In this document: positions 1 through 64,000 of the stretch, one piece after another
Numbering within the stretch: the first letter of the stretch is position 1
How the letters are laid out: the number at the start of each line of letters is the position of its first letter
NCBI GenBank assembly: GCA_008632985.1
Contig: QPGO01000042.1
Location: 372,001 to 436,000 of the forward strand
Origin: Psammoneis japonica
Taxonomy: Eukaryota
Length of the DNA stretch: 64,000 nt
Direction of reading: 5' to 3'
Position numbers and translations under genes: made by a program
The notes under the pieces: generated by a model
What the model was told of the DNA's origin: nothing
What the model saw: the letters and a program-made list of their open reading frames with translations, nothing else
Databases searched by the model: none

Positions 1-178
1 GAGCAAAGACCATGATTCTGACACCCTTGACGAGGAAAATTGTCAGTTTGAAAAAATGACGCGCAGTCATTCTGAGGAATGACTTGCACCGCAAGAGGAG
101 TCTTGCGCTCTGCTGGACATTGGGAAGCCCAGAAAAAGGGCCAAAGTAATTCACACTAGTCCAGCAGTCGTCGCCCAT

Positions 179-3100
179 GTGAATGCTTCATTGGGTGAGG
201 CGAAAAACAAGCCTCCACGCATTCTCCTCGACAGCGGAACATCGTCAACCACAATTTTGCGCAAATTCACGCGGAAACTCAGAACAAAAACATCCGCCAC
301 CAAACTCTGGGAAACCAAAGGAGGGCTCTTCACGACTGATGGTCGATGTAAGATCCAATTCTCCTTGCCCGAATTTGACAAACATGAGATGATTGAAACA
401 ACGGCACATGTTGACAACTCCCCTTCTTCTTCGAGTCATTGTGACATGATCATGGGACGCGACTTAATGTCAAGTCTTGGGGACAACATTGGACTTCTCG
501 AATGAAGAGATTAAATGGGGAAGATGCAACTGCTCCCATGAAGAATGTTGACACACTCTTCGATGCCGATGTTTTTAAGTTGATTGCCGATCACATTGAG
601 GAATCTCATGCAGTGATTGGTCTTGATGACAGGGTCAATCGGATCCTTGACTCAGACTGTCACGCTGCAAACCTCAATGATGTGACCGCAGCAGCCACTC
701 ATCTAACTCCTGAAGAGCAGAAGCAGCTGAACTTCCTCTTAAAAAGATTTGAAAACCTTTTCGATGGTTCTCTGGGCAAGTGGACCGGGAAACCGGTGGA
801 TTTAAAGTTGAAATCGGGCATGAGTCCGTGTCGTGCCAAACCATTTCCCGCACCACAAGCCTTGGAGGCGACCACTCGCAAAGAGGTTGAAAGACTGTGC
901 AAGTTGAAAGTCTCAAGAAAAACAAACTGTTCTGAATGGGCGGCTCCAACCTTTGTTCAACCCAAGAAAAATGGCAGAGTTCGGTTCTTGTCCGACTTTC
1001 GTGAGCCAAGTGAGAGGTCAATTCGTGCTCCGTTTCCTCTGCCCAATGTTCAGGATGTGCTGCAGAAGCTCGAAGGCTTCATGTGTGCAACGTCCCTGGA
1101 TTTAAACATGGGACACTGTCACATCGAATTGACGCCGCGCGCACGTCACTTGTGCACGATCGTCATGCCTTGGGGCAAATGTGAGTGCTGTGGACTCCCG
1201 ATGGGAATCTGTGGAGCTCCAGATGTTTTCCAAGAGCACATGAGTGAGCTCATGGCAGGTCTGGAGTTCGTCAGAACTCACATTGACGACATGTTGTGTC
1301 TTGCAAAAGGCGATTTTCAAGACCACCTCAAGAAGCTTGAAACGGTGTTCTTGCACCTGGAACAAGCCGGATTGAAGGTCAACGCCGAGAAGCCCTTTTT
1401 CGCCAAACCCGAAGCAGACCATCCAGGCTTTCATGTCACCCGCAAGGGCATCAGCCCAATTCCAAAAAAAACAGAAGCGATTCACGCGATCGCAACTCCT
1501 GAAACTCGCAAGGAATTGCGGCGCTTTGTCGGTGTGATCAACTGCTGTCGAGACATGTGGCCTCGACGATCTCATGTTTCAGCTCCTTCAGCCAAACTCA
1601 CTTCTACCCAAGTAAAGTGGCAATGGACCGAAACAGAACAAAAAGCCTTCGAAAACATGAAGCGCATCATCTCCAAAGATGTGCTGTCATCATACCCGAA
1701 TTTTAACGCACCCTTTGAGATGTGTGCCGATGCCAGTAATTCTCAATTGGGGGCGGTTGTTACTCAGAAAAACCGACCAATTGCCTTCTACAGCCGCAAG
1801 CTGAATGGAGCGCAAACGCGTTATGCTACAACAGAAAAAGAACTATTGTCCATAGTGGAGACGTTAAAAGAGTTCCGCAATATACTGTTTGGCCAACAGA
1901 TAAATATATATACGGATCACAAAAATCTCACACACAAAAATTTCACAACGGACAGAGTCATGCGTTGGCGTCTAATAAAATAGAAGAATACAGTCCCAAA
2001 ATAATATACCTTGAGGGCAAGGCAAATATTGTCGCAGATGCGATTAGCCGACTTACTATGAAGAAAATAGAACCTATGGAAACCCTCAGCACAGAAGAGC
2101 TAGCTGAAAAGGTCCTACCAAAATCCTACGACAATGTCTTTCCGTTAAATTACAAAGTTCTTGATTATGAACAAAAACGGGACAAAGACATTCTCTCCCA
2201 ATTGTCAAATAAGACGTTTCATACGAAGACTTTTCGTGGAGGCGAGCGAGACCGGTTGCTCATATGTCATAAGGATAAAATTGTCGTCCCGAGGACGTTA
2301 CAAAAGGCAGTGATAGATTGGTATCATACGTACCTTCTTCACCCTGGCATAAATCGAACAGAAGAAACAATCTCACAACACCTATGGTGGTCCACCTTAC
2401 GTGAAGACATACGAAAATACGTGTCGAGATGTGAGACGTGCCAAAAATTCAAAAAGAAACACAAGAAATATGGACATTTACCTCCTAAGTGCGCAGAATC
2501 CGCACCATGGGAACGACTGTGTGTGGACCTTATTGGGCCATACAAAATACGTCGTAAGGGAAAGAAAAAACCCCCAGTCCTGAAATGCTCAACTATGATC
2601 GATCCAGCAACCGGATGGTTTGAAGTTGTGGAAATCCCAAATGAGGAGTCCATGACTGCAGCTGGACTGCTAGAACGAACATGGTTGAGTGGATGTCCTT
2701 GGCCATCGTCAATTGCATGTGACCGTGGAAGTGAGTTCATCGGACACCAATTTAGAGAAATGGTGCAAGATGATTGTGGCATTGAAGTCAAGCCTGTGGC
2801 TGCACGAAATCCACAAGCAAACGCAATTGTTGAACGCGTGCATCAAGCACTGGGGAACATGCTCCGTGCATTTGATTTGCAACATGCACCTCTAGATGCT
2901 GAGGATCCTTTCACTGGAGTGCTGTCAGCGGCAGTGTTTGCGGTGCGTTCCACGTGTCACACCACTGCGCAAGCTGCACCAGGTCAACTGGTCTTCAACA
3001 GAGACATGACATTTGACGTCCAACATGTCGCAGACTGGAAATTGATCCAGCAGCGAAAACAAGAAATCACAAATAAAAATGACGCTCGAGAGAATGCTCG

Positions 3101-3287
3101 ACGTGCTCCTTGCACGTGCAGAGCAGGAGAAAAGACACTGCTCGAGAAAGACTCGCAAAAATTAGAACAGCCCTGTGTTGGACCGCATGCAATGACAACG
3201 GTGCATGCCAATGGCACAGCACAGATCAAACGCGGTGACGTCATTGACACTGTCAACATTCGTCGAACAATGCCGTTTGACGACTGA
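179..3287 (+). mobile_element. Ty3/Gypsy LTR retrotransposon pol (protease-RT-RNase H-integrase), frameshifted and TA-hypermutated; 5' part lies outside the window
   Basis: Protease ILLDSGT; RT WAAPTFVQPKKNGRVRFLSDFR, LPMG and a degenerate YxDD (THIDD); RNase H DAS..LGAV, YATTEKELLSIV, YTDHKNL; integrase HPG..C..C, CVDLIGP, DRGSEF, NAIVERVH. The PR-RT-RH-INT order is Gypsy. Frame breaks near 490 and 1975. Confidence 0.95.
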
Positions 3288-3300
3288 CTCTAATGTGCAA

Positions 3301-3707
3301 TTGGGGAGGCGAGTGCAACATGCGTTGTCATGCACGCATTGTGCGTGCGTGTCCATGTGTCAAATAAAAGCACATTTCAATCGCACGTCAATCGTGGGTT
3401 CGTACGAAGCACAGATCAGTCACACAGAAGTGATCGGATGTCGAGAATCGCAAATGCGATCGTACGATGATGTTGACATCTTGTGTGTCAACATCAATCG
3501 TGTCCGGACAATCTGTCATCACGATCACATTCTCCGAAAGGCCTTTTGTCTGCAGGAGCAGTGCAAAAGGTTCAGGCTGTTGAGAACCCGTTCGGAGAAA
3601 CCCAAAATGATTGCGTGGAAATGATTCTCATAATTTTCACCTTTTGAACTTCGTTCTACTTTCGTTTGCACTCGTTCTTCGAGCATGGTGCACATGGTTG
3701 CATTGCA
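3301..3707 (+). mobile_element. Polypurine tract (3303-3313) and putative 3' LTR (~3314-3707) of the Gypsy element
   Basis: GGGGAGGCGAG directly after the integrase stop, followed by TG. Candidate end ...TGCATTGCA at 3707, after which CpG density drops. Confidence 0.55.
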
Positions 3708-6243
3708 GAAACTGAAGCTCTTGTGCTTTGAAGCATCATTTTTTGAACAACTTCATGCATGATTGCATTTTGGTGCTCTTCTGGCAGCATGTGTGGTGCT
3801 GACACACTGGCCCAAGCTCTGCCTTGTTAATTGTTGCTCAAAAGCTGGTCAAACAACACAGCCACACAAAACTTTTGCCAGCAGCTTCTTGTCTCAAAGC
3901 TGCTCTCAAGTTCATGTTGGTGCAAACATCATCGTTGGAAAACTGGAGACAATTTTCTGAAAACAGCGCTGTTTCTCAGCACCAACCTGCTGAGAAAAGC
4001 ACCAACAGCTGTTTTTGTTGGCCATGACAAATCAAGGGCAAGTCTTCATCACAAAAAAGCAGGTGCATTTAAAAGAGAGATGCTGGCTTCATGACAAGGA
4101 GCAAGACTTTTGCAGGCAACAATTTTGCCTCCAGCTGCTGTGTGACTGTCAAGAGTTTCTTGTCACTTGCTTCCCACATGCTCTGTCAGCCAAGAGCACA
4201 AGTTGGAAATGATTGTCACACCCCCATCATGTGGCTGTGCACATGTGAGTCAAACAATCCCTGCCACTTGTGGCATTTGCAAGAGATGGCTGGCAACCCT
4301 TGTGTTGTCAAAATTTGGTGATTGCAAGACATGAAATGGCAGATTTCTTGATTGCTGCAAATGCTCTCAGGGATGCTGTGGTGTGAAGAATCTTCCATGA
4401 AGCCAAGCAGTGCTTCTTGCAATGTAAAAGCAGAAGAAAGCAGCAAAAAATGATTCTTTTTTTTGCTTTTTTGGGTTGCAGGCCACAACAGGCTGTCTTC
4501 ACCCCCACCAAAGCTGCCAGCACCCTGGCTCCATGCTGCAGCTGCTGCTGTCACAAAAGCAATTGTGCACTGCCCTGTTGCTTGGCTTTGTTGATGCACC
4601 CATCTGGCCACTGCCCAGCTCAACATCATGACAATTTCCAGCTTCTGAGACTCAAGAAGCATGAGAGAGCAAGAATGTCATTTGCCAAAGAGCAGAGTCA
4701 CTTTGATGCTGCACAAGGGCAGTGTGCCATGCAGCAGCACCACTTTGCCAACTCATCCTCTTTTGTTGTTTTGGGTTGGTGCAGCACCATTTGTTGGAAA
4801 AGTTTCTCACAAAGTGTTGTCAGGCCCACACCCAGCACTTTGCAAAAGAGCAAAGAAAAATGATGGCTGCTTTGCAGTGTGTGGAAATGCAGGGATGCCA
4901 AAGCTGGCTGCTGTCTCTCACCATCATTTTGTGCACAAAAAACACAAATGGCTTGTAGTTCACACAACCGTTGCACACACAGTGCAAGGAGGTGGTGAAC
5001 ACATCATTGAGATGACAACACGCAATGAATTTGGCCAGGGCTGTCTTTCAGCTCTTGCTTGTTTGTGTTTTGGGTGCTTGTTTCCAGGGAAAAGGTTGGC
5101 ACAGAAATCAGCTGGGCAAGTGCAAATGTGGAGAGAGATCAGCATCTCATGCTGCCACCAAGCCAAGCAGTCTGCCTTGTTTGACAACTGAGACCTGGAC
5201 CCACTCCTGGATTTTTGGGTGTGCAGCAACAGTGCAAGCACATTTCAGGATGTGCCCCAATGTGATGTGTGCACACACCATGCTTCCAGCCCCTGAACTC
5301 ACTCTCAGAGAGAGGGAGCTCTGCACAACCACTCTTTGACTGTGCAAAAGGCCAGCAAGCAAAAAGTTGTCTGATGTTTCTTGTTGTCCAGATGTTTCTT
5401 GCTTGCTGCCAGGGTGAAAAAAAAGGCAGGTGCACAATTTTGGACACAAGAGTGCACAAATTCCAGAGAGCCATGATTTCTCATGCTGCTGCTGAGCTGG
5501 GTTGACAACCAAACCTTGTCAGGTCCATGCCTGGATCTGGGCACACACCTTCACAGCATGCTTGTTTGGGTGGCACACCACTTTTTTGACCTCACTCTGC
5601 ACACACAATGATGTGACAGCATCATGGCATGTGCTGGTTTGGTGCCCAGCTTGTTCGCCATGAGAAGCCAGCTGGGCACATGGGGGAACATTGTCACAAG
5701 AAAAGAACAAGAGGGTGCCTGCGCTGCACATGCTGCTGTGATGGCTGCTGTCCACCTTGCACCAAGCTGGGCCTGGGTGCTGGCCACATCTCATGCAGCT
5801 TCCATGGCAGTGCAGGAAAATGGCTGTGATCCACACCAGTCCATCTGGAGGCCAGCTGTTGCTGCACCTTCTTGCAGAGGAGGGGGCAAGGGAACCCCCC
5901 TTCCCCCCCCCCCCCCCCCCACACACACACACAACACATGAGCACAAGTGCCGGCGCCGACAGCGTGCTGGTGGAAGAGGTGGAGGGCCTTTCAACCACC
6001 CATTTTTGTTGCAAGAACAACAAAAACTTGTGGCCTTGCTCTCTTTGAGAAGACCTCAGAGAGGACTTCAGAACGCGGTGGGGCCCTGACATCCACAGCC
6101 CCCACAAGACTTGCTGCCGGCATTGCTGCAAGTGAGCGGCAGCAGTTTGCCATCTGCTGAAGGACATGCGCGCCAATCCTTGCTTGCTTGCCTTGCTTCA
6201 CCCATCACAATCACCATCCACAGCCCCCACATGAGACTTGCCA

Positions 6244-8078
6244 CCAGCAAAAAACCAAATTGAGTCCTCATGACTGAACTGAGCATTTGTCCAACCCAAT
6301 TGTTGAGTCGATCAACAAATGAAATGATGAAAAAAAACAGGAATCAATCTGTGCTTGTTTCTGCAAAAATCTTCAATGGCAGCTGCTTTGGACCATGTGC
6401 TTGGATTTGGGTGCTTCGCTGTTCTCTGGCAGCCCGTTGCCATCGAACATGGTCGTTTGCATTTTTGAACACAAAAACAAGATTCAACAATCCTCTCTGA
6501 GACTTGCACCTGACATCACACAACAATTTTGTTAACACGCAAATGCAACATTCCACATTTTGAAACTTCTGAATTTGATGCCAACATTCCAACCTTTCAC
6601 CCACCACAATGATCGTTTCGTTGTTGGTCATTCCTTCCCACACAGAGAAGTCAGCAAGTGCAACGTCGTCCAAGTCTCCCACTTTCCTCATCAACTTCCA
6701 CCCACTGCGCTTTGTGGACAGTGTCTTTCTCTTGAACCGACAGCAACAACAAGCATCAGCTCCTCCAGGACATGGTGAAGAGGGGAGATTGCCTGAAGGA
6801 GCATCAAAGGAGACAACTGGAGAAGCTGAAGCAAGGCATGGGACATGGGATTGATGTGTCAGTCCATGTCCCAGCAAGATCTGTTTTAAATCAAGCTGCA
6901 CAGAACTGACCCCTGTGACACAATGGCTCATGACTGGGTGTCACATCCACAATGCAAAAAGTCAAGGATGCACTTGTTGGATGTTGCTTTGAATGGAAAA
7001 AGTGCACTCTGTGGATGCAAGCCAGCATCTGATCCACAGAATCCATGTGCCAAACTTGCTCTCAAAGTGTTGCAAAGGCTTCATGAAGCATGTGTGCCTT
7101 GCTGCATCTCTGCGTTGCCTCATGCCGGCATGACAGGAGAGATGCTCAGACATTCTTTGATGCCTTGAGGAGTTGGAGCTTCTTCCACGAGTGCATGGAG
7201 GTCCCGTGCCTTCAACAACGCTCAATGGCCATGGCTTTGTGTTGATTTAACAGGAAGCTGGTGGACACTGCTGCAAATGCATTGACAACTCGGCGCCCAT
7301 TTGACACCCTGCATTCAGCACGGCAAATGAAAACAACAAAGACAACGACAACAAAAAAGACACCAGCGAGATTGCTTCAGAATGAAGCAGCTGCATGGCA
7401 TCAAAAAACACTTCAAAATGCATTTGCTGTGACACTTGCAGAAGCCTGATGCACTGCAGCAAATGTGCTGTGAGAAGATGCCGTGCCGAGAACCTCTTGG
7501 CGCACTGCACTGGCAAGCAGATGACATTGTTTGATCTGCTGATGATGGGTGCAAAGAGTCATTGCACGAAAAAGGTGGTGCAACTTTTAAAGCCAGATTC
7601 AGCTGATCCCAAGCTCACTTCAAAACAAACTGTCATCCAACAGGTCTGCCAGTGAAAAACCAAATTGATTCCTTGTTTTTGCCAATTGTCGAGTGGCTGT
7701 TTTTCGCCTCACATTGGCTGGAGCTGACCATTTCTTCGCATTTCCTGTCCTTTTTCATCATCTCAAAATGTGGGATGTCACGCGCATGTGTTGACAAAGC
7801 TGTCACATGACATCAGGTGAGAATTGTTGAATCTTGTGCTCGCGTTCCAAAAACGCAAACAATGACCATGTTCGACGGCAACGGCCGCCCGAGAACAGCG
7901 AACCACCCAAATCCAAGCACATGGTCCGAAGCAGCTGCCATTGAAGATTCTCATAAAAACAAGTGCAGCTTGATTCCTGTTTTTTTTTCATCATTTTATT
8001 TGTCGATCGATTCAACAATTGGGTCGGACAAGGGCTCAGTTCAGTCATAAGGACTCAATTCGGTTTTTTTTTACTGGT
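6244..8078. repeat. ~260-bp inverted repeat pair (6244-~6500 / ~7815-8078) enclosing ~1.3 kb; possible non-autonomous TIR element
   Basis: The arms are reverse complements, also visible as near-identical ORFs MTELS..RSTN.MMKK on opposite strands. 6131-6220 also recurs directly at 8095-8185. Confidence 0.8.
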
Positions 8079-8403
8079 TGGGGCCCTACATACGAGTGAG
8101 CGGCGGCGCAGTCTGTCTGCTTGAGGGACGTGCGTGCCAATCCTTGCTCGCTTGCCTTGCTTCGTCCGTCATAAAAATCATCATCATCCCCACCCCGCCC
8201 GCCCCACCCCATCACAGGCAAACACCGGTGTTGTACGGTACCTAGGTACCGTACTGTAGTTGTTGCAAGAGCACATAGGTTCAGGTATTACTACTTGTCC
8301 CGGTTCCCGGTGCTAAGTACCAGCGAAGGAAGAGTGAGCAGGAGGGAGGAAAAGCCTCGAATCAGGACACTAGAAAAGACAGAGCTCACCATCTTCATAC
8401 AAC

Positions 8404-11400
8404 ATGGGCAAGCCCAAGGAGGATCGTTCTGGCTGGGTAGCGGTAGCTCCCGAATTTGCAGAGTCGACTGCCGAGGGACCCGCAATCCGTCCTGCGCAAT
8501 CGGCGTATCAGATCTTTCAAAAGGATGTGACGCCGGCAGTACGGGAGGAAGTATACAGCAAGTGCGGAGGAAAGTTTGAGCTAGCTGAATTCACCAAAGC
8601 AATCCATGCACGATGGAATGCCTTGGATGTTGTTCGTAAGGCTCGATATGAGGATCTGGCTCGCGAAGATGCTGCACGTTTTGCCAAGGAAAGCCACCAA
8701 GCCGACATTGAGCAGCTTGAACGACAGAATCGACGAAGGCAAGAACGGGAGGAGCTCATTCTAGATGATGGAACACAAGGACGAAGCACCAGAAGGAGTA
8801 GGAAGAAGCAGAAGAAGAAACAGGAGCGCCTCGAGCGAAAGAAAAAGCAGTCAAACCAGCAAGACGGATCTTCGTCTGATCCTCAGACAGACCCGGACTT
8901 TCACGACACCGGAGACTCTTATGACAGTGATGACTCCTCTTCCTATGACTCGGATGATAGCGACCGTCCTAAAAAGAAGAAGGTGGCTCCCCGGCAAGTG
9001 AGTCAAGCTGTACTTGAACGACGAGAAAAGGCGCGACAAGAGAAGGAAGAGAAAGAGAATTACATTGCGCAACGACAGGACGAGCTCCGACTTGATCGTG
9101 CGGCTCAGGCGAAACGACGACTGGATTTCCTCCTCAAACAGAGTGATATTTTTAGCCACTTTGGCAAGGTTGAAGAGGATAGAGCACGCCTTGTCAGCAA
9201 GAAACCGATTCGACGCGCCGAATCATCGGTCGAAACTGGGACTTCTCGACGTGCTGATTGCACGGAAGACGCTGAAGGAGTTGACGCGGAGGATATGGAT
9301 CAGGGGGATGAGCATAAAGCCACTTTTCTTACCGCACAACCGTCGACTTTAAGCCATGGAAAAATGCGTGAGTATCAGTTGGAGGGTCTCAACTGGATGA
9401 TCAGGCTTCAGGAAAACGGGGTTAATGGCATTCTAGCCGACGAAATGGGATTAGGCAAGTGTCTAGCAGAACAGAATCACGCAACCAATTCTGAATCAAC
9501 ACTCCTCACGTCACATGTCTTTTTTTTGTTTCGTAGGCAAAACGTTACAGTCAATTTCTATTCTTGTATACATGATGGAATACCAGAGTTGCAATGGACC
9601 GCACTTAATCGTCGTCCGAAATCTACGTTATCGAATTGGATGGGAGAGCTCGAACGGTGGGCCCCAACTCTAACTGCGGTAAAGTTCCACGGAAGTAAGG
9701 AGGAACGCACTGACATTGCGGAGAACGTTCTGCAGCCTGGGCAACGCGACGAAGACCGAGCTTGGCACGTATGTGTCACCACATATGAGGTTTGCAATAT
9801 CGACAAGAACGTGCTAAACAAATTTGCTTGGTCATATCTCATCATTGACGAAGCCCATCGTCTGAAGAACGAGGCATCTACGTTCTCGCAGACAATCAGG
9901 ACATATGAAACCCGATACCGTCTCTTACTTACGGGTACTCCGCTTCAGAATAATCTCCATGAGTTGTGGGCTCTCCTCAACTTCCTTGTGCCTGACGTCT
10001 TTGCTAGTTCGGAGCAGTTTGACGAATGGTTCAATCTAGACATTGATGATGCGATGAAAAGAATAAGCTCATTTCTCAGCTGCACAAGATTTTGAGACCC
10101 TTCATGTTGCGGCGTCTAAAAGTGGATGTCGAGAAGAGTCTTCCTCCAAAGCGCGAGACAATTCTTTTCACTGGAATGTCTGCAATGCAAAAGAAACTGT
10201 ACAAGGATATTTTGTTAAGAGACATCGACATGATTCAAGGAGGCGGAGGTTCAGGAAGCCGCACTGCGATTCTAAATATTGTCATGCAGCTTAGGAAATG
10301 TGCCGGACATCCCTACTTGTTCCCTGGAGTGGAAGATCGGTCGCTTCCTCCCCTTGGTGAGCACGTTGTGCAAAGTAGCGGAAAGATGGTCCTATTGGAT
10401 AAGCTGCTGAAGCGTCTGAAGGAAAGAGGACACCGAGTCTTGCTTTTCACTCAAATGACAAGAATCTTGGATATTCTGGAGGACTACATGATTATGAGAC
10501 AGTTTCAATATTGCAGGATCGATGGAAACACGAGTTACGAACTCCGAGAAGACAGCATTGATTCTTTCAACGCTCCAGATTCAAAGAAATTCATCTTTCT
10601 ACTTTCTACCCGTGCCGGTGGCCTTGGCATCAATCTCCAAACAGCTGATGTCGTCATTCACTTCGATTCAGATTGGAACCCGCAAGCCGACTTGCAAGCG
10701 CAGGATCGTGCTCATAGGTATGAAGGTTCATTGGTTCTTTCCGTGTCCTCGAATGTCGCCTGAACTGACTGAACGTACTATTCTTGCTGTTGTAGGATCG
10801 GACAAACGAAGGAAGTTCAAGTGTTTCGGTTCGTTACGGAGCACACAATTGAAGAAAAGATCGTTGAGCGTGCCCAGCAGAAATTGAAGCTCGATGCAAT
10901 GGTTGTGCAACAGGGACGCTTAAAGGATAAGGATAAGCTCTCCACGTCACAGCTGCTGGAGGCTGTGCGATTTGGCGCTGACAAGGTGTTCAAAACAAAA
11001 GACTCGTCCATCACTGACGATGACATTGACATGATTTTGGATGCGGGTGAACGAAAGACGCAGGAGATCAACGAAAAGTTGAAGAATGCCGAGAAAGGGG
11101 ATATGTTGGATTTCAAACTCGATGGCGGTATCTCAGCACAGACCTTTGAAGGCGTCGACTACTCGGGTAACGCCCTTGCGCAAGCGAAAGCGGAGCAAGC
11201 TCAGGCCCAACTGCTTGGCATGCTCGACATTGGAAAACGCGAACGCAGAACCGTTGCCAACTACAACGAAAACCAACTGTATCAGCAACAAATTCTTGCT
11301 CTACAAGGCGGCGCGGTGAAGGAGCGAAAGAAAAAGCCCAAGCGACTACCCAAGGGGTTGCGACTTCCCCGAATGGAAGAGTGGCAAATGTATGACAGGG

Positions 11401-13418
11401 CTCCACTCCAGAAGCTGCAAGAAGAGGAGGAGAAGGGATTTCGAAGCCTACCTGAAGAGCAACAGAAGATGGCTTATGCCAGAGATGGGAAAAAGTCAGA
11501 GACCGGAGAGGCCGATGGTGTGTCGGCAGAGAAAGAAACGTGCGCTGATCTCAGCGTTTTGCCTCCGTTACTAAGCGAGGAAAAACTGGAACAGAAGGAG
11601 GCGTTGCTCTCTGAAGGCTTTGCAGAATGGGGAAGGCAGCACTATTCTGCATTTGTCAAAGCCAGTGCCAAGTTCGGGCGAAACAACTTCGAAAAAATCT
11701 CACCAGAGGTAGGAAAGCCGCAGAGTGCGGTGGAGGAGTACGCCGCAGCATTTTGGGACGAGAACGTGGGAAAGAAGCGATTCTCTGAACATGAATACGA
11801 ACGCGTGGTAAAGTTGATTGAGCGAGGAGAGCGAAAGATTGAGGAGATTAAAGGGCTTGAGCGAGCCACGGATGTTCTTGTATCTCTCTTCGACAACCCT
11901 TGGGCTGAACTAGAGTTCATTCACGTGAATTGCAAAGACAAAATGTTCAGTGTTGACGAAGATCGACACTTACTCTGCTGGACACGAAAGGTGAGAATCA
12001 ACCAATGGTATGATGTCGCTTACAATGTAAGACATTGAAAACTGATTTCTGTGGCGTTTCCTGTATTCCTTCAACTGAAAGTATGGATACGGCCAATGGG
12101 GTGCTGTTAAGCTGGCAATACGACGAAGCCCCGATTTTCGTTTCGATTATTTCCTCCGCAGCTTGCCAGTGGAACTTGTCGGGAGGAGGTGCGAACAACT
12201 AATGAAGGCGGCAGAACGCGAAGTTGAACAGCTAGAGAGATCTGTGCGAGAGGAGTTGGGGTTGCCCCCAGCAGACGAGAAGAAAGATGAAGAAGTGACC
12301 AATGACTCTGTAGAGCGTCAACCGGTAAGCGGTGATCAATCACAATCTCTCCCGATTGAGATTCCAATGTACAAAGTGGCAATGGCGAGGAAGAGAGTCG
12401 AGACTCAGAAGGCCGCAGAATCAGAAAGAAAAGAGCTAGAACGAAAGGTAGAAGATATCGAGAGAGATATGCGCAACATACAAGAACGTTTGAAACAGTT
12501 GCAAGAACACAGCAAGGAGCAAGATGTTGGCACCTCCTTGTTGACAGCTGAGTTTCCAGACGAACTAGTTCCCAACTTAGCGAATCTTCTGGCTAGAAGT
12601 GGTCCAGCTGGGATGGTGTCGGTTGCGAATTCCTTCTCTTCTGAGCATCCAGGGCGAGTAAGTAAGAGAAAGATTTGTTCCAAGATCGAGGATATTGCCG
12701 TGAAGGAGAAACGTGAAGAAGATGGCGACACAAAGCCCATGTGGTATGTACGAGAAGAGTACGCACATTTGCTTGACGCCGACACCCTGCGACACATGCG
12801 AGAAGCTAAGGAAGAAAGGCTTCAGAAGATGCAAGAGAGCAAGGCAGATAGCGTGGACTCAGGCGGAATCGACGATGAAGACCAAGCCGATGAGGCTGAC
12901 TTCAATGAAAATAGCGGATGCGTAGGTCCAGATGGAACTTTCGTTTTGTTTCCCGAGTACGACGGTAAAGAGCCTCCCCGGGAGTGCAAAAAAGCTTTTA
13001 CTCATTTCTGCAATGCCACAAGAAAAGAAATTAAGGCCGCGCTTGATCCTTCTGTGCGGAAGGACAAGGTACGTAACCAAGCGTTGTCGCGCTGCTTCTT
13101 CTGTCGTTCTTCTACATCATCTCATTCGTTTCAAACTATCTTTAGAAAAAGGTTAACTCGATGTTGAAGCAAAAGTGGTTCTCACTAACGGAAGACGAGA
13201 AGAGTAAATGGAAAAAATGGGAAGCGTGGGATGCAAAGCGATTTGATCGCGATGCGGCGATACACGAGAAGTACGACATTACGCAACATGCTTCTGCGGC
13301 TAAAGCTGTTGAAAATACAACACAAAATGCAGTGTCGCAGATGCACATTCCTAAGAAGCGGACGGGGGATGCAGCGACAGGTTTGTCTTCTATTCCAAAA
13401 AAGAGGCGATCGTCGTGA
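8404..13418 (+). CDS. ISWI/SMARCA5-type SNF2 chromatin-remodelling ATPase with HAND-SANT-SLIDE and N- and C-terminal HMG-box-like regions
   Basis: Motifs [62 protein letters not shown] and a SLIDE-like FRFDYFLRS. Introns 9455-9536 (GC-AG), 10718-10795, 11991-12081, 13069-13145. Two apparent 1-bp deletions (~9617, ~10052). Confidence 0.93.
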
Positions 13419-28105: not shown

Positions 28106-28333
28106 TCAGTCGTGCCCGAAACCTGGAGCCAGCCAGCTTTGGCAGAACGCACGCACCATTCCTCCTCCCCTCCTTGCATGGTCTCAGTGGGCAGTTCAAA
28201 ACTGAAGTTACAACATCACATGTCACCTCTCTGCTCATGCTCTTCAGTTCTTTTTTACCCTCTGCATGGACACCTCTTCCCACCCCATGTCTGCAAAAAA
28301 CAATGTTTGCTCTGTGTCATGACAACACACATC

Positions 28334-54407: not shown

Positions 54408-57400
54408 GGTCCGACGTTTCGACTCTGGCGAGCAATACACTGATCAGAACAGAACAAAGCCACCAGCTGGTGTCCCGTTGTGCTCGTGTTCGTCTTCGCC
54501 GTTGCTAGCTTCGCGCCAGAATTTTTGCGAATTTCCAAAAAACTTCCGTTGATATTATGAATAAACAGAAATGAAGAAAAATAATAAATAGGTGACGTGG
54601 TCACGATTCCTGATCAATCCAAATCCAATCCCACCGCCCACGAGCTTCCAGCTTTTCCAGACCGAAAATTGCCAAAAGACCCAAGATTTTATTCGCGCGT
54701 TTTTCTTTTTTGTGTCCTTGTGTTTGCACACGTCGCATGTTGTTGCATGGAACACCCCGCGGCCACTGCAAATCCCTGCACTGTGCCAGCACTTGCTTCT
54801 TCACCAACCCACTGCGTGTGTGCCAACCAACTCACTCGTGTGCTTTTGTGCACCTTCTTGTTCACCCCCCATCAAAAAGGGGTGAGGGGCAAATTGAGAA
54901 AGTGCACCTGCTTGTCTTGTGCTGCTGCTGCACCATGCCAGCATTTGGCTGGCTGGCATCCATCCATCATGGCATCGTCTTCCTTCAACTCTCCACAATC
55001 TTGCACGCACTCAGAGTCTTGCTGCTGCCAACTGCGCAACCCAAGCCTTCTCCGACTCTCCAGCAAATCCATTGCTCATGTGTCGGTGATCTCTTTGGCA
55101 AAATTCATCAGTCCATGATGGGAGAGGCACGTTCCAGCACTGTGTGTGCTGCACTGGCAAGCCTGCAAGACAGTTTTGGCCTGCTTCCACTGTTGATCGG
55201 TGGGTGCTGTTTGTGTCATCTTGGACTTGTTTGGGAAAATTCTATCATGGATGACATTGCTGCAGAACACACCCCTGTGACTGGGAAGCTTCAGGGGTTT
55301 CACTTTCGCCGAGTGCGCATCACGAGCAGCACTGCTTTTCTCGTTGGCTTCCCCTTGGGCTTTCAGGTTGCAGCCCTTGAGCAAAGCTGCCATTGCAGCA
55401 CATTGTTCAGTGTTGCAGCTGCCGCTGCAGCTTCTTGTTGGATCGGCTGGTGGCTCACCATGTTCAGCAGTGGCAGGACCAGCAGAAGAAGCCGACGGTC
55501 AAGCAGAGCAGCACCAAGAAAGATCTGGAGCATTGCTTGCCAAGGCAGTGGCAGCCAAGGAGAAGGCATTGCCTTGGGTGGTGGAACCAGGAGTGGCAAC
55601 ACAGTCAACCACACTGAAGAGACCTTTTGCGAGATGCTTCCTCCAAAGGACATCAGAGGTTCTTGGTCCACAGGATTGTTGTGACAGCTCATGGCGGGAC
55701 GGTCACATGGAGGATTGCCTGTCATCTCCAGAGGTCAAGTCTGCAGAGGCCCATTCTCTGTCTGCAAAGGTCCAGCCTGCGAAAGTCCAGTCTGGTGGGG
55801 AGGCTGATGGTTTGTCACCATCTTCTCAGGACATCGGTCAGGTCAGCCCTGTTGCGGAGGTCCAGCATGCTGTGGACATTGATGTTTTGTCTCCGTCTCT
55901 GGAGGAGGTCCATCCCCCATCTGCCAAGGCAGAGCTCCATCATGAGTCTTCATGCTGAAGGCTTTCAAACAGATCAGGCAGGTTGACAGTGTTTCACTGT
56001 GCTTGCTGCAATGTCTTCACTGTTGCTTCATGCAATTGTGAGCTCATGGCTGTTGTTGTGGTGCTGCTGTGAGTGGGGATGCCACAGAAATCACATGGGT
56101 GCTGTTTTTTTAGCAAAATCAACCTCTGCCTGAATGGACCATGGCGGTCATCGATGTCCTGACAAAAAAATGTCATCATCATGATGCACAACACTCAATG
56201 TGTGGTCACAATGCACAAGGCCAGGCTTCCAACTCCTGCCACAATGCACTCCAAGTGACAACCAAATCAACCTGCCATGTCTCACCAAATCACTTGTGCA
56301 CCCTCAGAACAACTGTTTCAGACAGCCCCTTTGACAAAGCATTGTGTCTGCCATCATCTGGTTGGGTGGAATGTGCCAAGGGGCTGTCTCGAACAACAAC
56401 TTGGTTGAGAAATCAAGCAACATCAACACCTGACCAACAAGCACACATGTTTTGTGCCAAATCACTTTCAAACCCTCAGGATCATCGTTGAGAGTTGCAC
56501 TTTTGACATCATCATTTCCACCATCATTGGATCAGGTGGGGTGCACCGAAGCACAACTTTTGGAAGCAGGCTCATCAAGTGATTTTGAAATGTCTGCGAA
56601 TGACCTCATGTCTCATCTGAACATCATGCCGTCATCCATGTGGCACCTTCATGAGAGAAACAATTCTCTTGTTTGCTGGAAACAGAGACCATTGGGAGTT
56701 TGTCCATCAGCAAGAAACAACTTGCTGTCATGATGAAAGCTCTGAGGAAAGGATTTTTGTTGGGCTCTGAGACTCTGAGATTTTGAGAGCGATCAATTCC
56801 GTGTTCACGACAAGCAACAAGCATTCAAAAACACCATGTTTTGGCTGTGTCAAGAGGAAGAGCAGCACCAAGAGGCACATTGTGGAGAGGAGTGGGCAGC
56901 TGCACATGGCTGGCAGCTGCTGCGGATCCACTCTGCCCCGCATCAAGACCATTCGTGAAATGTTGGAGCAGCACAAAAGCCAAGAAAGCTGCTGGACATT
57001 GGCCTTCCTGAGATTTGGCTTTCTGGTCTCAAGGACTTGGTTGTGGATGACATTCACAACTGCTTGACTTGCCATTTTTGAACATGGGCAAGTCTTGTGG
57101 TGTTTCCGGATCAACTTGCTTCAAAAAGCTCATGATGGTGGGTGGCTGTGGAACAGTTGTGGACATGTCAAAGAAGCAAGTGGAGGATGGGGTGCATGTG
57201 ATTGACATGAATGTTGATTAAAAAGTGGGAACTCCCACTTCCACTGCTGCTGTCAATCCAAATGATGCAATGACAGTTCCGACTTGTGTCATGCAAAGTC
57301 ACGCATGCATGACACTGTTGTGTCGGTTGGTGTTTCATCCCCGTTTGTGTGTCTTGCAACAATTGTTGCATGTGGCACAACACTTGCACAATGAGAATGT

Positions 57401-59930
57401 GGTGCATGGTCTTCCTCACGATGGAAAATGTCCATTTTGTCATGTGTGCTTTTGGACCAACAAACTGCGCAGGCTCATTTCTCTTTCAGTTGAAGAGCCG
57501 TCTGTCAGAAATGTTGCCTTTGACAAAAGTGATGTCAATTTGCCGAGTTGGACCATGATGATGATGATGGATGATTTGGACTGCTGGCATTGCTCAAGGG
57601 ATGACAGGGAATTTACACAGAGCAGGAAGGATGACAAAGGCAGATTTCATCACACTTGAAAATGTGACCTTAATTTCACCACAAAAATGGCTTGGATCAT
57701 TGTGCTTGGTTGGTTTTTACATGGTGAAGTGTGGCAAAAGCAAGAAAAGTGCTGTTTCTTGTTCTCTCCAACTGCACAGTCAGGTGACTTGGTGGATGCA
57801 TTGTCAGAGACATGAGAGCTTCTGCTTTTGATGTCGGTCACCATTGGCATCATAAAAGCCGCAACAACCTTCCAAAACTACAAATGAGTCAACGTGTGAA
57901 AAAATTGAATGTTTTCAGTTGTGATCACATGGCAAAGTGCGGGAAAATGGCAGTCACTTCATTGCTCTTGATCTTGACAAATGCAAGGCCAATGAAGAAG
58001 TCATGCCCCAATCCAAGCACCTCTGAGCACCCTCTGTCGAATGAGGCAACTTCTCTCATTTCAATCCAAGAAAGTTCGTTTCCACGTGATTTTGGTGGCG
58101 TCCCCACCCACAGCTGCTGATGGATGGATCCTCTCTCAATCAAAACATGCAGCATTGGGAAAAGTGTCACTGCAAAATTAACAACAATTGCTGAGTTTCT
58201 TTGTCAAAGCTTTGTTTGGAGCCATTTGACCTTTGACAAGAGCTGTCCAATGCTCAACAAGAGCCATCAAGGAAATCGTGTGCAACTCCACATCTCGCAA
58301 GCACAAGCTCATGCGATGCACCAAACACACAGCACACGGCACACTTCAGAAGATCTTCTTGCCACCATGAGCAAGTGCCCATCACATCCCACTGGCCAAG
58401 ATCCAGAGAGCAGCAACCACTGTTGCTTGTCCATTCCCAATGCAGCTCAGTCTTGGGGGAAGAAAGGATGGCAACAAGCTCATCACCAAGTCCCAGCTTG
58501 AATCATGGCAGTGCAACTGCAGCTGTGCAATTGCAAGCAAAGCTTCAGAAATGCTGCTTTTGGACTTGGACTTGAACTGGGATGAAGAGTCATTGCATGA
58601 CTCTGTCTTCAAAAAAGCTGAAAAGATGCTGGCTCATTGCAGTGCTGCAAAAGCTGCAAAGAGTGCCATCCGACGTGATGCCGCTGCACCGAACCTGCTC
58701 TCCCCTGCCCTCAGCTCTGCTGCAAATGCTGCTTGATCAACCACTCCAACATGAGGCAAGGTGATTGTGTTGGACAATGAGGACATGCCAGAAGAAGAAA
58801 CTGCTGAAGTGAAACTTTGAAAAAAAAAGGTCAACAAGATGGGTGGAAGGAAGCTTCCTCAAGCTTTCCCTGCTCAACACAAGCCACAGTTGCTCAAAAG
58901 CACATTGCAGATTGACGCAAAGCTTCTCATCACCAATCAATCACAGATTGATGTCATTGCCAACTGCTTGCCCCCCCTGCTGATTGATTTCCAGATGACA
59001 CACATTCCTCTGCTCTCTGCCAAAATGGACAGTGCTGCTGTCACAATGGCTTGCGGAACAGTGGAAGCAGTCAGCAGATTGGTCATGTGCCGGCAAGTTG
59101 GTGCAGTGGTTTGCCCTCTTTCTGGACTGTCACTTGAATTTCTGACTTTTCTTTCCTGTTCCATTGTGCAACAGGCTGCACTGACAAACACGACAGCTCT
59201 GCCAACTGGTGCAGCCCATCTGCCTGCAGTGTGTCCATTGTGGCTGCAGCTCTGTTGGTTGCGGCTGCTCCCCCTGATGCCGCCAGTGTTGCTCCCACCA
59301 CTCCTTCTCAGACTGTGGTGAGATGTGTGTGCAAGTGAATGAATGCTGGCCGGAAACACACATCACCTGCCATGAAGGCAGCCGACCTCTGGAGATGCTC
59401 CAGGACATGAATGCCGCCTCTCCAAAAGCAGTGAAAATGATCATTGAAGATGAAGAAGAAAATGAAGAAGAGTCTCAAGATGTTCTTGATTGTGCTTTTG
59501 AAACAAAGAAGGTGGAAGTGGCAAAGAGTGGTGAACCCTTTGCTCAACATTCAGCATTTTGCCACCTTTGCAAAAAAAATTGAAAAGACATTCACATGAC
59601 CACAACAGCCACTTTGAAGGTTGACAACCAAAAGTCCTTCACCGCTTGACTTGAAACAAACCATCAAGACTTCCACGCATGATGGTGTGCACCCAACTGC
59701 AAAGAAAATGGAGGCAACTCAGGTGATCACAACACTGAAAAAAAAAAAGAACGTTGCAACATCTTGTCTCAACACACGTCACTGATGTCAAGACATGCAG
59801 CCTCAATGATCTCCTGCACACTTCAAGCCAAATCCACCTCCATGAAGGTCAAGTGCGGAACAAAAGTCTCCAAAAACATGGAGTGCATCATGTCAAAAAC
59901 TGCACCACCATCATGCCTGAAATTTGGCAT

Positions 59931-60018
59931 TCACGTCACAACGGAAAAAGAGCTTCTGTCCATGGTGGAAACACTTGGGAAATTCCGGAATGCACTGTTT
60001 GGCCAACACATTGACATG
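59931..60018 (+). mobile_element. Gypsy RNase H fragment related to 1821-1910, flanked by an ~83-bp direct repeat (59808-59889 / 60020-60101)
   Basis: HVTTEKELLSMVETLGKFRNALFGQHIDM versus YATTEKELLSIVETLKEFRNILFGQQINI. Confidence 0.85.
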
Positions 60019-60103
60019 TGATCTCCTGCACACTTCAAGCCAAATCCACCTCAATGAAGGTCAAGTGCAGAACAAAAGTCTCCAAGAACATGGAGTGCAT
60101 CTC

Positions 60104-60927
60104 AGTTTGGTTTTGCCGTGTTTTTGAACAAAATTCCCCGGGATTGCCACCTTTTACCCTGTTTTTCTACGGAAAGGGTGAGCCACCAGGGAATCGCCAC
60201 AAATTGCCCTTCGTCACATGTGTGCTCAACACACGAATAAAAAACAATGCATTGGCAATTCCCCGTGCTTCCCCTCTCACACATTTCTGCATGTTCTGCA
60301 TCTCAGCACGTGCGGAAAGACACACCAGATGCGCAAATCAACAATCAAACAATGCAACAAAAATGGGCAACATGCCATGGACCTTTCATGTCCCATTTGT
60401 GATGGCTTTTGTCAAACAATGATGACACCAGCAAATCCAGTGAACAACATTGTGATTGACAGCATAAAATGTAAAATGAGCAGAAGCTTGACAGATTGCG
60501 TTCAGAAAACTGGTGTGTTGACAGATCGTTGCACTTGTTCTTTTGTGGTGCGGTCACAAATGCAAGCCATGCGGTGTCCATGGCAAAGTCCAAGGCAAAA
60601 GTGGAACCGTGCATGGCCAACAAAAACATGACAGATTGAATTGCGAACGCTCCATGGCATGTTGCCCATTTTTGTTGCATTGTTTGATTGTTGATTTGCA
60701 CAGCTGCTGTGTGGTTCCATGCGTGCTGGCATGCAGAACACGTGGAAATGTACAAGAGGGGAAGCACAGGGAATTGCCAATGTGTCATTTTTTGTTCGTG
60801 TGTCAAGCACACATGTGACAAAGGGCAGTTCGTGGCAATTCCCCGGGAATTCACAATTTCCGTAGAAAAACAGGGTGAAAGGTGGTGATCCCGGGGAATT
60901 TTGTTCAAAAACATGGGAAAACCAAAC
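60104..60927. repeat. ~275-bp inverted repeat pair (60104-60381 / 60651-60927)
   Basis: Reverse-complement arms, with matching ORFs VFEQNSPG.PPFTLFFYG on opposite strands. Confidence 0.88.
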
Positions 60928-60929
60928 TT

Positions 60930-63535
60930 CGGTGGGTCGGCAGGTTGGCGGGGTGCCCCATCCAATTTCTTCATTGCTGGACATCAAATCACATCCCTTG
61001 GTTGGTTGGTCAGTGGGTTGGTTGGTCAGTGGGTCGGTGGGTTGGCGGGTCGGTGGGTCTGCGGGTCCGCGGGTTGGCGGGTTGGCGGGTCGGTGGGTTG
61101 GCGGTTCAGTGGGTGGACAGGTTGGCAGGTCGGTGGGTTGGCGGGTCGGCGGGTCGGCGCTGAAGTTCCTTTTCATCCCACGCCCTGTTTCTCCTTGTCC
61201 CTGATGGGCTCCAGTCCCAGGTGGGACGTTTTGTGACACTCGGCTCGCAGAATTCTGTGCAACTTCATTTTTAAGACTTCAATCTTTCGCAATTGGAAAA
61301 ATTTCTTTCAAATGGATGTTGCAAAAGCCTGTGATGGGAGAAGGTTCTCACGCATTGCAGATTTGCGTCAGAACATTCACGGTGAGATCCGCTGGTTCTT
61401 CCCACACTCATTTGTCCAAGGAACTTTTCAAAAGGATTTCAAACCTCTCAGTTGGTTGGTCAGTGGGTTGGTTGGTCAGTGNATTGTCTTGTCTGAAGAT
61501 GCTTTGAAAAAATTGGTGACAGATTGGTGCACAATGCGCGCCCACTTCACACTGGAAAAAAGACAGTCTCGCAACACCCGTGCAGTTGCAGTGTAAAACA
61601 TGCAAGGCAAGACACAAACAAACAATGTCGCTCTCAAATGACATTTGGAAATTGGAGCGGCCCTGACCCGCCGACCCGCCGACCTGCCGACCCACCGACC
61701 CACCGACCCACCGACCCACCAACCAACCAACCAACCAAGATGCGTTCCAGCCATAGGTGGGACTCCGTGTGACATTGGGCCCGTAGAATTCTACGTGCGA
61801 GCTCCGTAGTACGAGAATTTAATCAATGGATGTGTTTGTCTTCAACATCAAATAAATGGCCAAGTTTGTGGTACAATCATGCCTCTCACCACTCGACTTT
61901 TTTGCAAATGCGCCTGCCCTGCGCGATTCTTAAGACATTATAGAATCGCGCTGTAACAAAAAATGTCAAAAGTTGTTGGACGGATCGCTCAACAAGTGCA
62001 CCGTAAAATGACACAAAACATCGAAAAAATCACGTAGAAATCTACGTGCGCGACATGCGACGTGATTCAAAAAACTGTCGATGTCACAGTTCAGCAGTGC
62101 GAGGTCCCACCTGGACCTGGAACACGTCCCAACCAACCAACCAACCAAGAGACGTGACTTGATGTCCAGCAATGAAGAAATGAGATGGGACACAGCAGTC
62201 GCCCCATGAAGAATGTTGGTGCATGGTCAGTTGGTCGGAGGGTCGGCGGGTCGGTGGGTTCGCGGGTCGACGGGTTCCAGCCCTGGGTGGGACTCCGTGT
62301 GACATTGGGCCCGTAGAATTCCACGTGCGAGCTCCGCAGTAAATTTGTGCTGCAATGAAAACATGAATGATCGCCAACAGAAAAAGAGGCAATTTTGCGA
62401 ACACATCTCCTCCTTCACACTTGGAGCACATCATTGATGGTTTGCCCGGGTGTGTTCTTCAGACATCAAAGAATGCACCCAGTGCATTTTCATTCTCACA
62501 AATGTTGAAAATAGAAAGCCTTTGGCTTCACAAAACAGGGAGCATGAAACAATTTCGCACAATTTTACACGCAGAAATGTGCGTGCGCAACATGCGACGC
62601 GATCCAAAAAACTGTTGATGTCACAGTGCAGTGGTGCAAGGTCCCACCTAGAGCTGGAATGCGTGGGTCGGCGGGTCGGTGGGTCGGCGGGTCAGTGGGT
62701 CGGCAGGTCGGCGGGTCGGNNNNNNNNNNNNNNNNNNNNNNNNNNNNNNNNNNNNNNNNNNNNNNNNNNNNNNNNNNNNNNNNNNNNNNNNNNNNNNNNN
62801 NNNNNNNNNNNNNNNNNNNNNNNNNNNNNNNNNNNNNNNNNNNNNNNNNNNNNNNNNNNNNNNNNNNNNNNNNNNNNNNNNNNNNNNNNNNNNNNNNNNN
62901 NNNNNNNNNNNNNNNNNNNNNNNNNNNNNNNNNNNNNNNNNNNNNNNNNNNNNNNNNNNNNNNNNNNNNNNNNNNNNNNNNNNNNNNNNNNNNNNNNNNN
63001 NNNNNNNNNNNNNNNNNNGCAGAATTCTGTGCAACTTCATTTTTAAGACTTCAATCTTTCGCAATTGGAAAAATTTCTTTCAAATGGATGTTGCAAAAGC
63101 CTGTGATGGGAGAAGGTTCTCGCACATTGTAGATTTGCGTCAGAACATTCACGGTGAGATCCACTGGTTCTTCCCACACTCATTTGTCCAAGGAACTTTT
63201 CAAAAGGATTTCAAACCTCTCAGTTGGTTGGTCAGTGGGTTGGTTGGTCAGTGAGTCGGAGGGTCAGTGGGTCGGTGGGTCGGTGGGTCGGCGGGTCGGN
63301 NNNNNNNNNNNNNNNNNNNNNNNNNNNNNNNNNNNNNNNNNNNNNNNNNNNNNNNNNNNNNNNNNNNNNNNNNNNNNNNNNNNNNNNNNNNNNNNNNNNN
63401 NNNNNNNNNNNNNNNNNNNNNNNNNNNNNNNNNNNNNNNNNNNNNNNNNNNNNNNNNNNNNNNNNNNNNNNNNNNNNNNNNNNNNNNNNNNNNNNCCGAC
63501 CCACCGACCAAGCAACCAACCAACCAACCAACCAA
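60930..63535. repeat. G-rich GGTC/GGTT/GGYG microsatellite tracts (8-mer GGGTCGGY) in both orientations, adjoining two assembly gaps
   Basis: Tracts at ~61000-61158, 61451-61481, 61664-61737, 62130-62148, 62225-62275, 62663-62719, 63222-63299 and 63496-63535. Confidence 0.9.
61745..62659. mobile_element. Two ~380-bp TIR-bounded MITE-like units (61745-62121 and 62275-62659)
   Basis: Each begins TTCCAGCC...GGTGGGAC and ends GTCCCACC...CTGGAA, with subterminal CGTAGAwwTCTACGTG-type motifs. Confidence 0.6.
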
Positions 63536-63990
63536 GAGACGTGACTTGATGTCCAGCAATGAAGAAACAAGATGGGGCACAGCAATTGCCCCATGAAGAA
63601 TGTTGGTGCACTCTTCGACACCAACATGTTCCAGCTGAGTGCCAATCACATTGAAAATGTGGCACTGTGAATGGAGTCAACAACAGGACCAGTGGCCCTT
63701 GGATCACATTGTTGCACCATTGACTCCAATCAAGTGACAGCCACAGCAATGCATCCAAACCAAAAGAATGCAACCCACTCAATCTTCTTCTCAAGAGGTT
63801 TGAAATCCTTTTGAAAAGTTCCTTGGACAAATGAGTGTGGGAAGAACCAGCGGATCTCACCGTGAATGCTCTGAAGCAAATCTGCAATGCGTGAGAACCT
63901 TCTCCCATCACAGGCTTTGGCCGCATCCACTTGAAAGAATTTTTTCCATTTGTTGAAGATTGAAGTCTTAAAAATGAAGTTGCACAGAAT
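63535..63990 (+). mobile_element. Degenerate Gypsy protease/RT-junction fragment homologous to 454-930; partial inverted copies at 61245-61450 and 63020-63220
   Basis: gccccatgaagaatgttggtgcactcttcga versus ctcccatgaagaatgttgacacactcttcga. LNLLLKRFEILLKSSLDK versus LNFLLKRFENLFDGSLGK. Confidence 0.8.
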
Positions 63991-64000
63991 TCTGCGAGCC

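Follow-up and report, generated by a model that had tools for sequence, protein, structure and literature searches.

Hypermutation confined to the dinucleotide TpA has been described by Mettrop et al. (bioRxiv preprint, 10.64898/2026.01.13.699255) in integrated viral DNA of the chlorarachniophyte Bigelowiella natans. According to that report, two integrated viral regions received 231 of the 302 nuclear point mutations seen in mutation-accumulation lines. All but one of the mutations in these regions were A>G or T>C, those transitions all lay at TpA, and they arose at about 6e-7 per site per generation, in bursts and in some lines only. The report further describes 124 clusters of 1-kb windows in the B. 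natans genome that are poor in TpA and rich in CpA plus TpG, and low-TpA coding sequences enriched in reverse transcriptase (RT) and DDE domains. Its authors proposed an ADAT2-like DNA adenine deaminase, and the preference of ADAR for a 5' U/T neighbour is also given there; CpG, TTAA, trinucleotide contexts and diatoms go unmentioned in the main text (10.64898/2026.01.13.699255). Here we analyse 64,000 nucleotides of the diatom Psammoneis japonica (assembly GCA_008632985.1, contig QPGO01000042.1, positions 372,001 to 436,000; this whole stretch is called the window), in which several domains, including part of a Ty3/Gypsy retrotransposon, are almost devoid of TpA. A preliminary description of this DNA had considered the pattern undescribed in diatoms. 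Our literature searches found no diatom report of TpA>TpG/CpA hypermutation, and within the reach of these searches it is new to this group, but the phenomenon itself had already been described, in B. natans in 2026.

The locus resembles the B. natans regions in its near-exclusive A>G/T>C changes, in the restriction of these changes to TpA, which becomes TpG or CpA, and in their regional confinement. Both genomes contain TpA-poor, CpA- and TpG-rich clusters, with RT-type elements among the targets. B. natans is a chlorarachniophyte (Rhizaria), whereas the host here is a diatom (Stramenopila). The hypermutated DNA described there is viral; here the targets seen are a long terminal repeat (LTR) retrotransposon and unidentifiable repeats, and viral genes were not recognised. 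The depletion is also deeper, with an observed/expected ratio (o/e) for TpA of 0.04 as compared to a Rho of 0.45 reported for the region derived from a nucleocytoplasmic large DNA virus (NCLDV) in B. natans. Finally, mutation accumulation gave evidence of de novo change in B. natans, whereas the signature described here is read from sequence alone. The new details concern the near-saturation of the process, its co-location with CpG decay, its sharp borders, the independent conversion of copies in place, the resistance of TTAA and the absence of new stop codons.

Fungal repeat-induced point mutation (RIP) makes TpA from CpA and TpG and creates stop codons. The diatom locus shares with RIP a regional transition hypermutation that disables repeats and transposons and can be recognised by its dinucleotide footprint. 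The direction is nevertheless opposite, since TpA is destroyed here (CA and TG o/e about 1.7), and no stop codons are created. RIP hits all duplicates over a threshold of length and identity, whereas the repeat copies at 24523-25112 and 42252-42462 were spared, so that a dependence on duplication is not evident. Deamination of 5-methylcytosine (5mC) produces the same CpG>TpG/CpA decay that is found in most of these domains, but it cannot remove TpA, and the TpA loss is larger here and extends to places where CpG is intact. Decay of 5mCpG is thus a co-occurring component and not the explanation of the TpA loss, and the earlier statement that neither RIP nor 5mC deamination accounts for the pattern holds. 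ADAR, ADAT2/3, TadA and APOBEC enzymes offer a likeness in their deaminase-type transitions, strict neighbour preferences and the concept of defence by editing; the ADAT substrate A34 follows U33. However, ADAR, ADAT and APOBEC act on RNA or single-stranded cDNA, whereas the changes here affect both DNA strands and are bounded by domains. APOBEC moreover causes C>T in TC/CC contexts, which was not seen.

Dinucleotides were counted per kilobase and the window was segmented, with o/e values calculated from base composition. This analysis confirmed that the TpA depletion is real and strong. It is distributed as follows.

1-426, 727-1554, 2745-3215, 3554-7922, 19997-21234, 28615-39801, 40524-41572, 54733-61642 and 62465-64000: the nine TA-poor blocks delimited by segmentation
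1-1600: TA-poor 5' part of the Ty3/Gypsy element, TA o/e 0.06-0.11, with CpG kept (o/e 0.82-0.86)
2600-8040: TA-poor domain without recognisable protein; its core, 3554-7922, has 10 TpA, TA o/e 0.03 and CG o/e 0.25
19900-21300: TA-poor domain, with 4 TpA in 19997-21234, overlapping a CNNM/DUF21-like fragment
26400-28600: graded border zone
28615-42200: main TA-poor domain, with a sharp right border at about 42200; 28615-39801 has 27 TpA in 11.2 kb, TA o/e 0.04 and CG o/e 0.18
54700-64000: TA-poor domain with a sharp left border at about 54700, containing degenerate Gypsy pol remnants and assembly gaps

Pooled, the nine blocks (27,518 non-N bases) contain 78 TpA against 1819 expected. Their o/e values are 0.04 for TA, 1.76 for TG, 1.71 for CA and 0.31 for CG, as compared to 0.55, 1.22, 1.18 and 0.93, respectively, in the other 36 kb. 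Taken individually, the blocks have TA o/e values of 0.03-0.14 and TG and CA o/e values of about 1.2-2.0, and the GC content is about 0.48 both within and outside them. Open reading frames (ORFs) of the blocks encode no Tyr at all, whereas those of the genes have a normal Tyr content. The transitions between the two states take about 100 bp at roughly 1600, 2600, 8000, 19900, 21300, 42200 and 54700, and a single border zone, at 26.4-28.6 kb, is graded. The preliminary description had placed the TA-poor blocks in close agreement with this segmentation, its manual counts (1 TpA in 841-1560, 0 in 29161-29760) are exact, and its statement that neighbouring genes have ordinary TpA and Tyr is borne out by the values above.

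The specificity of the process was derived from three in-window pairs, in each of which just one of the two copies lies within a TA-poor zone; a further set of duplicated segments lies entirely within a domain.

24523-25112, plus strand: unmutated arm of an inverted pair, partner of 27545-28076
27545-28076, minus strand: mutated arm of this pair, in the TA-poor zone, partner of 24523-25112
42252-42462, plus strand: unmutated copy immediately beyond the main domain on its right, paired with 34404-34605
34404-34605, plus strand: mutated copy, reading TG 3, CA 6 and TA 1 at the 10 TpA of 42252-42462
6223-6566, plus strand: mutated copy of an inverted pair, whose partner 7760-8097 lies at a domain border
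32574-33191, plus strand: duplicated with 34017-34331 and 34947-35256, all within the domain, with CA-versus-TG double differences

At the 24 TpA of 24523-25112, the mutated arm reads TG 10, CA 8, TA 2, TT 2 and GA 2. Over the whole set, 38 TpA of the unmutated copies correspond to TG (15), CA (16), TA (3), TT (2) and GA (2) in the mutated copies, and never to CG, so that each site received a single hit. Of 74 TpA bases, 31 carry A>G or T>C changes, as do 37 of 473 other A/T bases, some of the latter changes stemming from the other copy (odds ratio 8.5, p=1.5e-12). Transitions make up 31 of the 35 changes at TpA sites, the remaining 4 being transversions. A>G is found at 15 of 37 A in TA, against 14 of 247 A not preceded by T.

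The two strands are affected about equally. Events were scored in the pairs, in read variants and in Tyr codons; TG makes up 28 of these 54 and CA 26, and the two are also about equal across blocks. The TG-versus-CA balance of 500-bp bins is only mildly over-dispersed (chi2 76.7, df 45, p=0.002), and strand-coordinated tracts were discarded as a feature of the process. Where both copies lie within domains, CA facing TG is the commonest adjacent double difference (35/126) and contributes 35 of the 61 double transitions; its share is 14 of 34 in the three closest in-domain pairs. Such differences are the trace expected if ancestral TA or CG sites were converted independently in each copy after duplication. 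The strand symmetry, together with these double differences, rules out that the changes were passed on by an edited RNA or a mutated master copy. What is supported is an A:T>G:C process at TpA that works on DNA, in place and on both strands, and is targeted to particular regions.

The polarity of the change can be judged from the Ty3/Gypsy element at the left end of the window.

1-3300: Ty3/Gypsy element with RT, RNase H and integrase (Pfam)
445-1980, plus strand: Gypsy pol ORF with RT and RNase H, open for 512 codons (Pfam)
1740-3284, plus strand: Gypsy integrase ORF with a zinc-binding H2C2 domain and an rve core (Pfam, tblastn)
1600-2600: unmutated patch within the element, with 61 TpA, TA o/e 0.76 and CG o/e 1.02, both borders being about 100 bp wide
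59845-60018, plus strand: degenerate pol remnant, the only trace of pol in the blocks besides the transition-blind links given below

We aligned the pol ORF with 59 relatives of at least 36% identity. At the ten conserved-Tyr columns in its TA-poor part, the element has Cys at six (TGY), His at three (CAY), Phe at one and Tyr at none, whereas in the TA-normal part Tyr is retained at two of three such columns. The family is not natively TA-free, because the TA o/e of related metagenome loci is 0.41-1.18 in 78 of 78; that scan keeps the best-scoring loci, and hence intact copies, and says little about frequency. Judged against these relatives, TA is shown to be the ancestral state and TG/CA the derived one. 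The patch at 1600-2600 may have originated by gene conversion from an intact copy, as an assembly chimera or as a locally protected stretch. A self-comparison in purine/pyrimidine code, which is blind to transitions, paired 501-884 with 63558-63939 and 1330-1709 with 59573-59930. For the first pair blastn recovered only a 99-bp fragment, and for the second it recovered nothing.

Proteins with the same signature occur elsewhere in public records. In a representative library, two of the 150 nearest pol relatives are Tyr-free, namely P0174 with 699 aa and P0194 with 397 aa; the 150 have a median Tyr fraction of 3.5%. At 32 positions occupied by Tyr in P0138, to which it is 67% identical, P0174 carries His (16), Cys (12), Phe (3) or Val (1). 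The named relatives listed with P0174 are diatoms (Nitzschia inconspicua, Mayamaea pseudoterrestris). P0174 and P0194 may or may not come from the same genome as the window. Gene finders evidently call hypermutated elements as proteins.

The sequence context was counted in core blocks (3554-7922, 28615-41572, 54733-61400). There, 19 of 57 surviving TpA lie within TTAA, against 41 of 1020 in genic sequence (Fisher p=1e-11), often at junctions of T-runs and A-runs such as TTTTAAA. Retention of TpA is 0.52 in TTAA, 0.074 in VTAA or TTAB and 0.025 in VTAB. A per-strand rule, by which a 3' A would hinder editing of that strand, found no support: TTAB gave 6 TG and 5 CA, and VTAA 5 TG and 3 CA, which are small numbers. 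When TA>TG and TA>CA changes were enumerated over all frames, none created a stop codon, and both strands of the core blocks together contain 63 TAA and 17 TAG against 1169 TGA. The near disappearance of TAA and TAG accounts for the many long open frames and for the intact 512-codon pol ORF. Since the changes never create a stop codon, the elements would be disabled by missense changes, in particular the disappearance of every Tyr, rather than by truncation.

Most TA-poor domains are depleted of CpG as well (CG o/e 0.18-0.37), a feature absent from the preliminary description. CpG is intact despite the loss of TpA in 1-1554 and in 27670-28076; this latter 400-bp core has 1 TpA against 18 in its partner, and 20 CpG against 20. 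Relative to genic sequence, about 7% of TpA is retained (0.04/0.55) versus about 33% of CpG (0.31/0.93). Among the 78 environmental pol relatives, 24 have a CpG o/e below 0.65, whereas the TpA o/e is never below 0.41. The CpG and TpA processes are thus separable, and TpA loss was faster or earlier here. Transposable elements are reported to be major targets of CG methylation in diatoms, and a RID-related DNMT4 of unknown function to be widespread in this group (PMC9998398). Because of the former report, we read the CpG decay as a methylation footprint. Five metagenome loci (L003, L028, L036, L067, L073) combine CpG o/e values of 0.07-0.19 with ordinary TpA o/e values of 0.62-0.75, and it appears that in these hosts the element is methylated while the TpA process is lacking.

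The process had been proposed to be repeat-restricted. The affected domains do hold repeats and the Gypsy element, but repetition alone does not delimit them. The copies at 24523-25112 and 42252-42462, which lie just beyond a domain, are unmutated, unlike their partners, and parts of the main block (29005-31672 and 35675-38999) are at single-copy read depth at a likeness of at least 90%, with no recognisable repeat or protein in such parts. The domain at 19900-21300 overlaps with the truncated fragment of a CNNM/DUF21-like gene, located on the minus strand (19825-20253). Over the minus strand of 19825-21245, positions that are TG or CA in the window read TA in contigs at 2-3 times the single-copy read depth, suggesting that an intact CNNM/DUF21-like paralog exists elsewhere in the genome. 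Given the spared outside copies, the unmutated patch of the Gypsy element, the single-copy parts and the CNNM fragment, position within a domain is a better predictor of mutation than repetition or foreignness.

The bases themselves are supported by reads from one study, possibly the assembly's own sample; no RNA data set was listed as containing the stretch. Read-derived contigs have a word depth of 58-63, and neighbouring single-copy genes 54-58. Contigs differ from the window by four differences and one gap over 28571-32678 and by none over 36839-38999, and two contigs covering 35152-36837 show one difference each. Two runs, X2 and X3, gave zero cover over 28338-38999. At 14 of the 40 variant sites listed (40 of 213), the window has CA or TG where the other contig has TA, and the reverse was found at 0 of 40. 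Each of the 13 differences listed for the border zone (26872-28033) has TG or CA in the window versus TA (8) or CG (5). The variant contigs may be alleles or paralogs, and the window copy would be the more derived either way. As the preliminary description stated, TA>TG and TA>CA were seen on the same strand, in in-window paralogs as well as pol Tyr columns; A>G is enriched at TA. A native TA-free family is contradicted by the metagenome relatives and by the unmutated paralogs, which carry TAs, and read-derived contigs of the one study bear out the bases. The proposed action on DNA agrees with the strand symmetry and with conversion in place after duplication.

We consider it likely that silenced, degenerate repeat and retrotransposon domains have been hit in place by TpA-specific A:T>G:C hypermutation with the signature known from B. 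natans. Under this reading, each TpA would be converted once, to TpG or CpA, with the strands about equally affected, until about 95% are gone; TTAA would be a poor substrate; and the process would leave neighbouring genes untouched and halt at borders that are mostly about 100 bp wide. The domains may be CG-methylated heterochromatin, the CpG decay being its footprint, and the same silenced state might recruit or admit the mutator. As to the chemistry, enzymatic adenine-to-inosine deamination at 5'-TA-3', in duplex or transiently unwound DNA, is a tentative assignment to which we give slightly less than an even chance. Several points weigh against the hypermutation reading and its chemistry. 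The signature was found in none of the 78 environmental pol relatives, in a scan that favours intact copies, and the large blocks are not identifiable as a transposable element or virus by Pfam, homolog and Atlas searches. A simple deaminase rule based on the 3' neighbour of each strand found no support. Read support is not independent, since the sole run with the sequence may be the assembly's source sample; the variant comparison covers 40 of 213 sites, and its contigs are ambiguous between alleles and paralogs. Lastly, we infer the enzyme and the targeting signal from one 64-kb window, and A>G on one strand is indistinguishable from T>C on the other, so that adenine and thymine chemistry look alike.

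Under a rival explanation, a symmetric mark maintained at heterochromatic TpA (N6-methyladenine (6mA), or an oxidised or hypermodified thymine such as 5-hydroxymethyluracil (5hmU)) would mispair, deaminate or be misrepaired, as 5mCpG decays to TG/CA. TpA and CpG are both self-complementary pyrimidine-purine (YpR) steps and decay to the same products in the same domains, and the listed border-zone differences are, without exception, of these two kinds. The strand symmetry and single hit per site fit a palindromic mark, and resistance of the whole TTAA without a per-strand rule would suit a modification enzyme that reads sequence. We know of no TpA-specific modification in eukaryotes, however; eukaryotic 6mA lies at ApT. 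TpA has also been lost where CpG is intact (1-1554, 27670-28076), and the bursts reported for some B. natans lines suit a regulated enzyme better than steady decay (10.64898/2026.01.13.699255). Taken together, we regard decay of such a mark as quite unlikely. A-to-I editing of retrotransposon transcripts by an ADAR- or ADAT-like enzyme, fixed through reverse transcription, would agree with the 5' U/T preference reported for ADAR and with the fact that one affected element is an LTR retrotransposon. It is nevertheless highly improbable: only sense-strand A>G would be heritable, yet both strands are equal (TG 28 versus CA 26 overall, and 6 TGY versus 3 CAY on the pol sense strand), the borders at 1600 and 2600 cut through a single element, sequence that is not a retroelement is hit (the inverted-repeat arm, the CNNM fragment), and in-domain copies changed independently of one another once they had been duplicated.

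Of the WA motifs, TA is the hotter one in somatic hypermutation, which would favour error-prone repair synthesis of the Pol-eta type concentrated in heterochromatin. This explanation appears very unlikely given that A not preceded by T shows A>G at 14 of 247 positions versus 15 of 37 in TA, with no AA hotspot, and that 31 of 35 TpA changes are transitions, albeit in a small sample. As the domains are probably methylated and a single study holds the sequence, an artefact of sequencing, base-calling or assembly at modified bases was also considered. It would have to reconcile independently built read contigs, which have single-copy depth and differ from the window at 0-4 positions per 2-4 kb, with TA sites that each take one change and never become CG, copies that differ as TG versus CA, and Tyr-free pol proteins in other public records; we find it as improbable as the editing of transcripts. 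That the DNA arrived TA-poor, or that TA sites were avoided by selection, draws on nothing beyond the composition itself and has a negligible probability in view of the conserved Tyr codons replaced by Cys and His, the relatives with ordinary TpA and the in-window paralogs that carry TAs.

In-place hypermutation at TpA in this diatom would mean that the process is not peculiar to one lineage or to viral inserts. It would be tied to retrotransposons and to domains bearing a CG-methylation footprint, and a possible genome defence may thus be more widespread. We further raise, as an unlikely extension, that an old DNA-editing defence coupled to silencing is common to diatoms and chlorarachniophytes, and possibly to stramenopiles, alveolates and Rhizaria (SAR) at large, and that it erases TpA and methylated CpG in heterochromatin. 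A DNA adenine deaminase or a modification system that reads TpA would be recruited by the CG-methylation or heterochromatin machinery and would spread to sharp borders. If so, diatoms, which are transformable and CRISPR-editable, would be the place to identify the enzyme. Several mechanistic details are now testable, namely the single hit at each site, the symmetry of the strands, the sharp borders, the resistance of TTAA and the lack of new stops. There are also practical consequences, as long Tyr-free open frames are mistaken for proteins by gene finders, and repeat homology is hidden from ordinary DNA searches and recovered by transition-blind comparison.

The content of the window was surveyed with Pfam (83 of 136 ORFs of at least 120 aa and 150 of 157 ORFs of 70-119 aa), and no family was found among the scanned ORFs of the large blocks. 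A homolog search with the 313-aa ORF at 37038-37976 and an Atlas search with the 356-aa ORF at 54614-55681 were without match. The recognisable contents of the blocks are one Ty3/Gypsy element, pol remnants and one CNNM fragment derived from a host gene, and most block sequence matches nothing. The genes between the blocks encode an ISWI-type SNF2 ATPase, a Sec16-like protein, WD40 proteins, an ATG22-type major facilitator superfamily (MFS) transporter, deoxyhypusine synthase, a leucine-rich repeat (LRR) protein, pyrroline-5-carboxylate (P5C) reductase, HisG and a UPF1-like helicase. The best 120 relatives of the deoxyhypusine synthase are 72-88% identical to it, and every one named to an organism is from a diatom (Attheya, Entomoneis, Cylindrotheca, Pseudo-nitzschia, Nitzschia, Fragilariopsis, Seminavis, Cyclophora). 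Judging from these relatives, the host is a diatom; the window is nuclear DNA, and its host genes are diatom genes.

Runs of N mark assembly gaps at 61482, 62720-63018 and 63300-63495, amid a tangle of short repeats at 61-64 kb, and the composition figures of the last 2 kb are less reliable for this reason. A tandem repeat of about 148 bp, with three units 86-91% identical, is located at 26427-26861, immediately to the left of the graded border, and one of its units is skipped by a read contig (26480 to 26628). The ISWI-type chromatin remodeller gene (8374-13164; HMG box, SNF2, Helicase_C, SLIDE) is spread over four ORFs, which suggests short introns. It directly adjoins a TA-poor domain, and this proximity is probably a coincidence.

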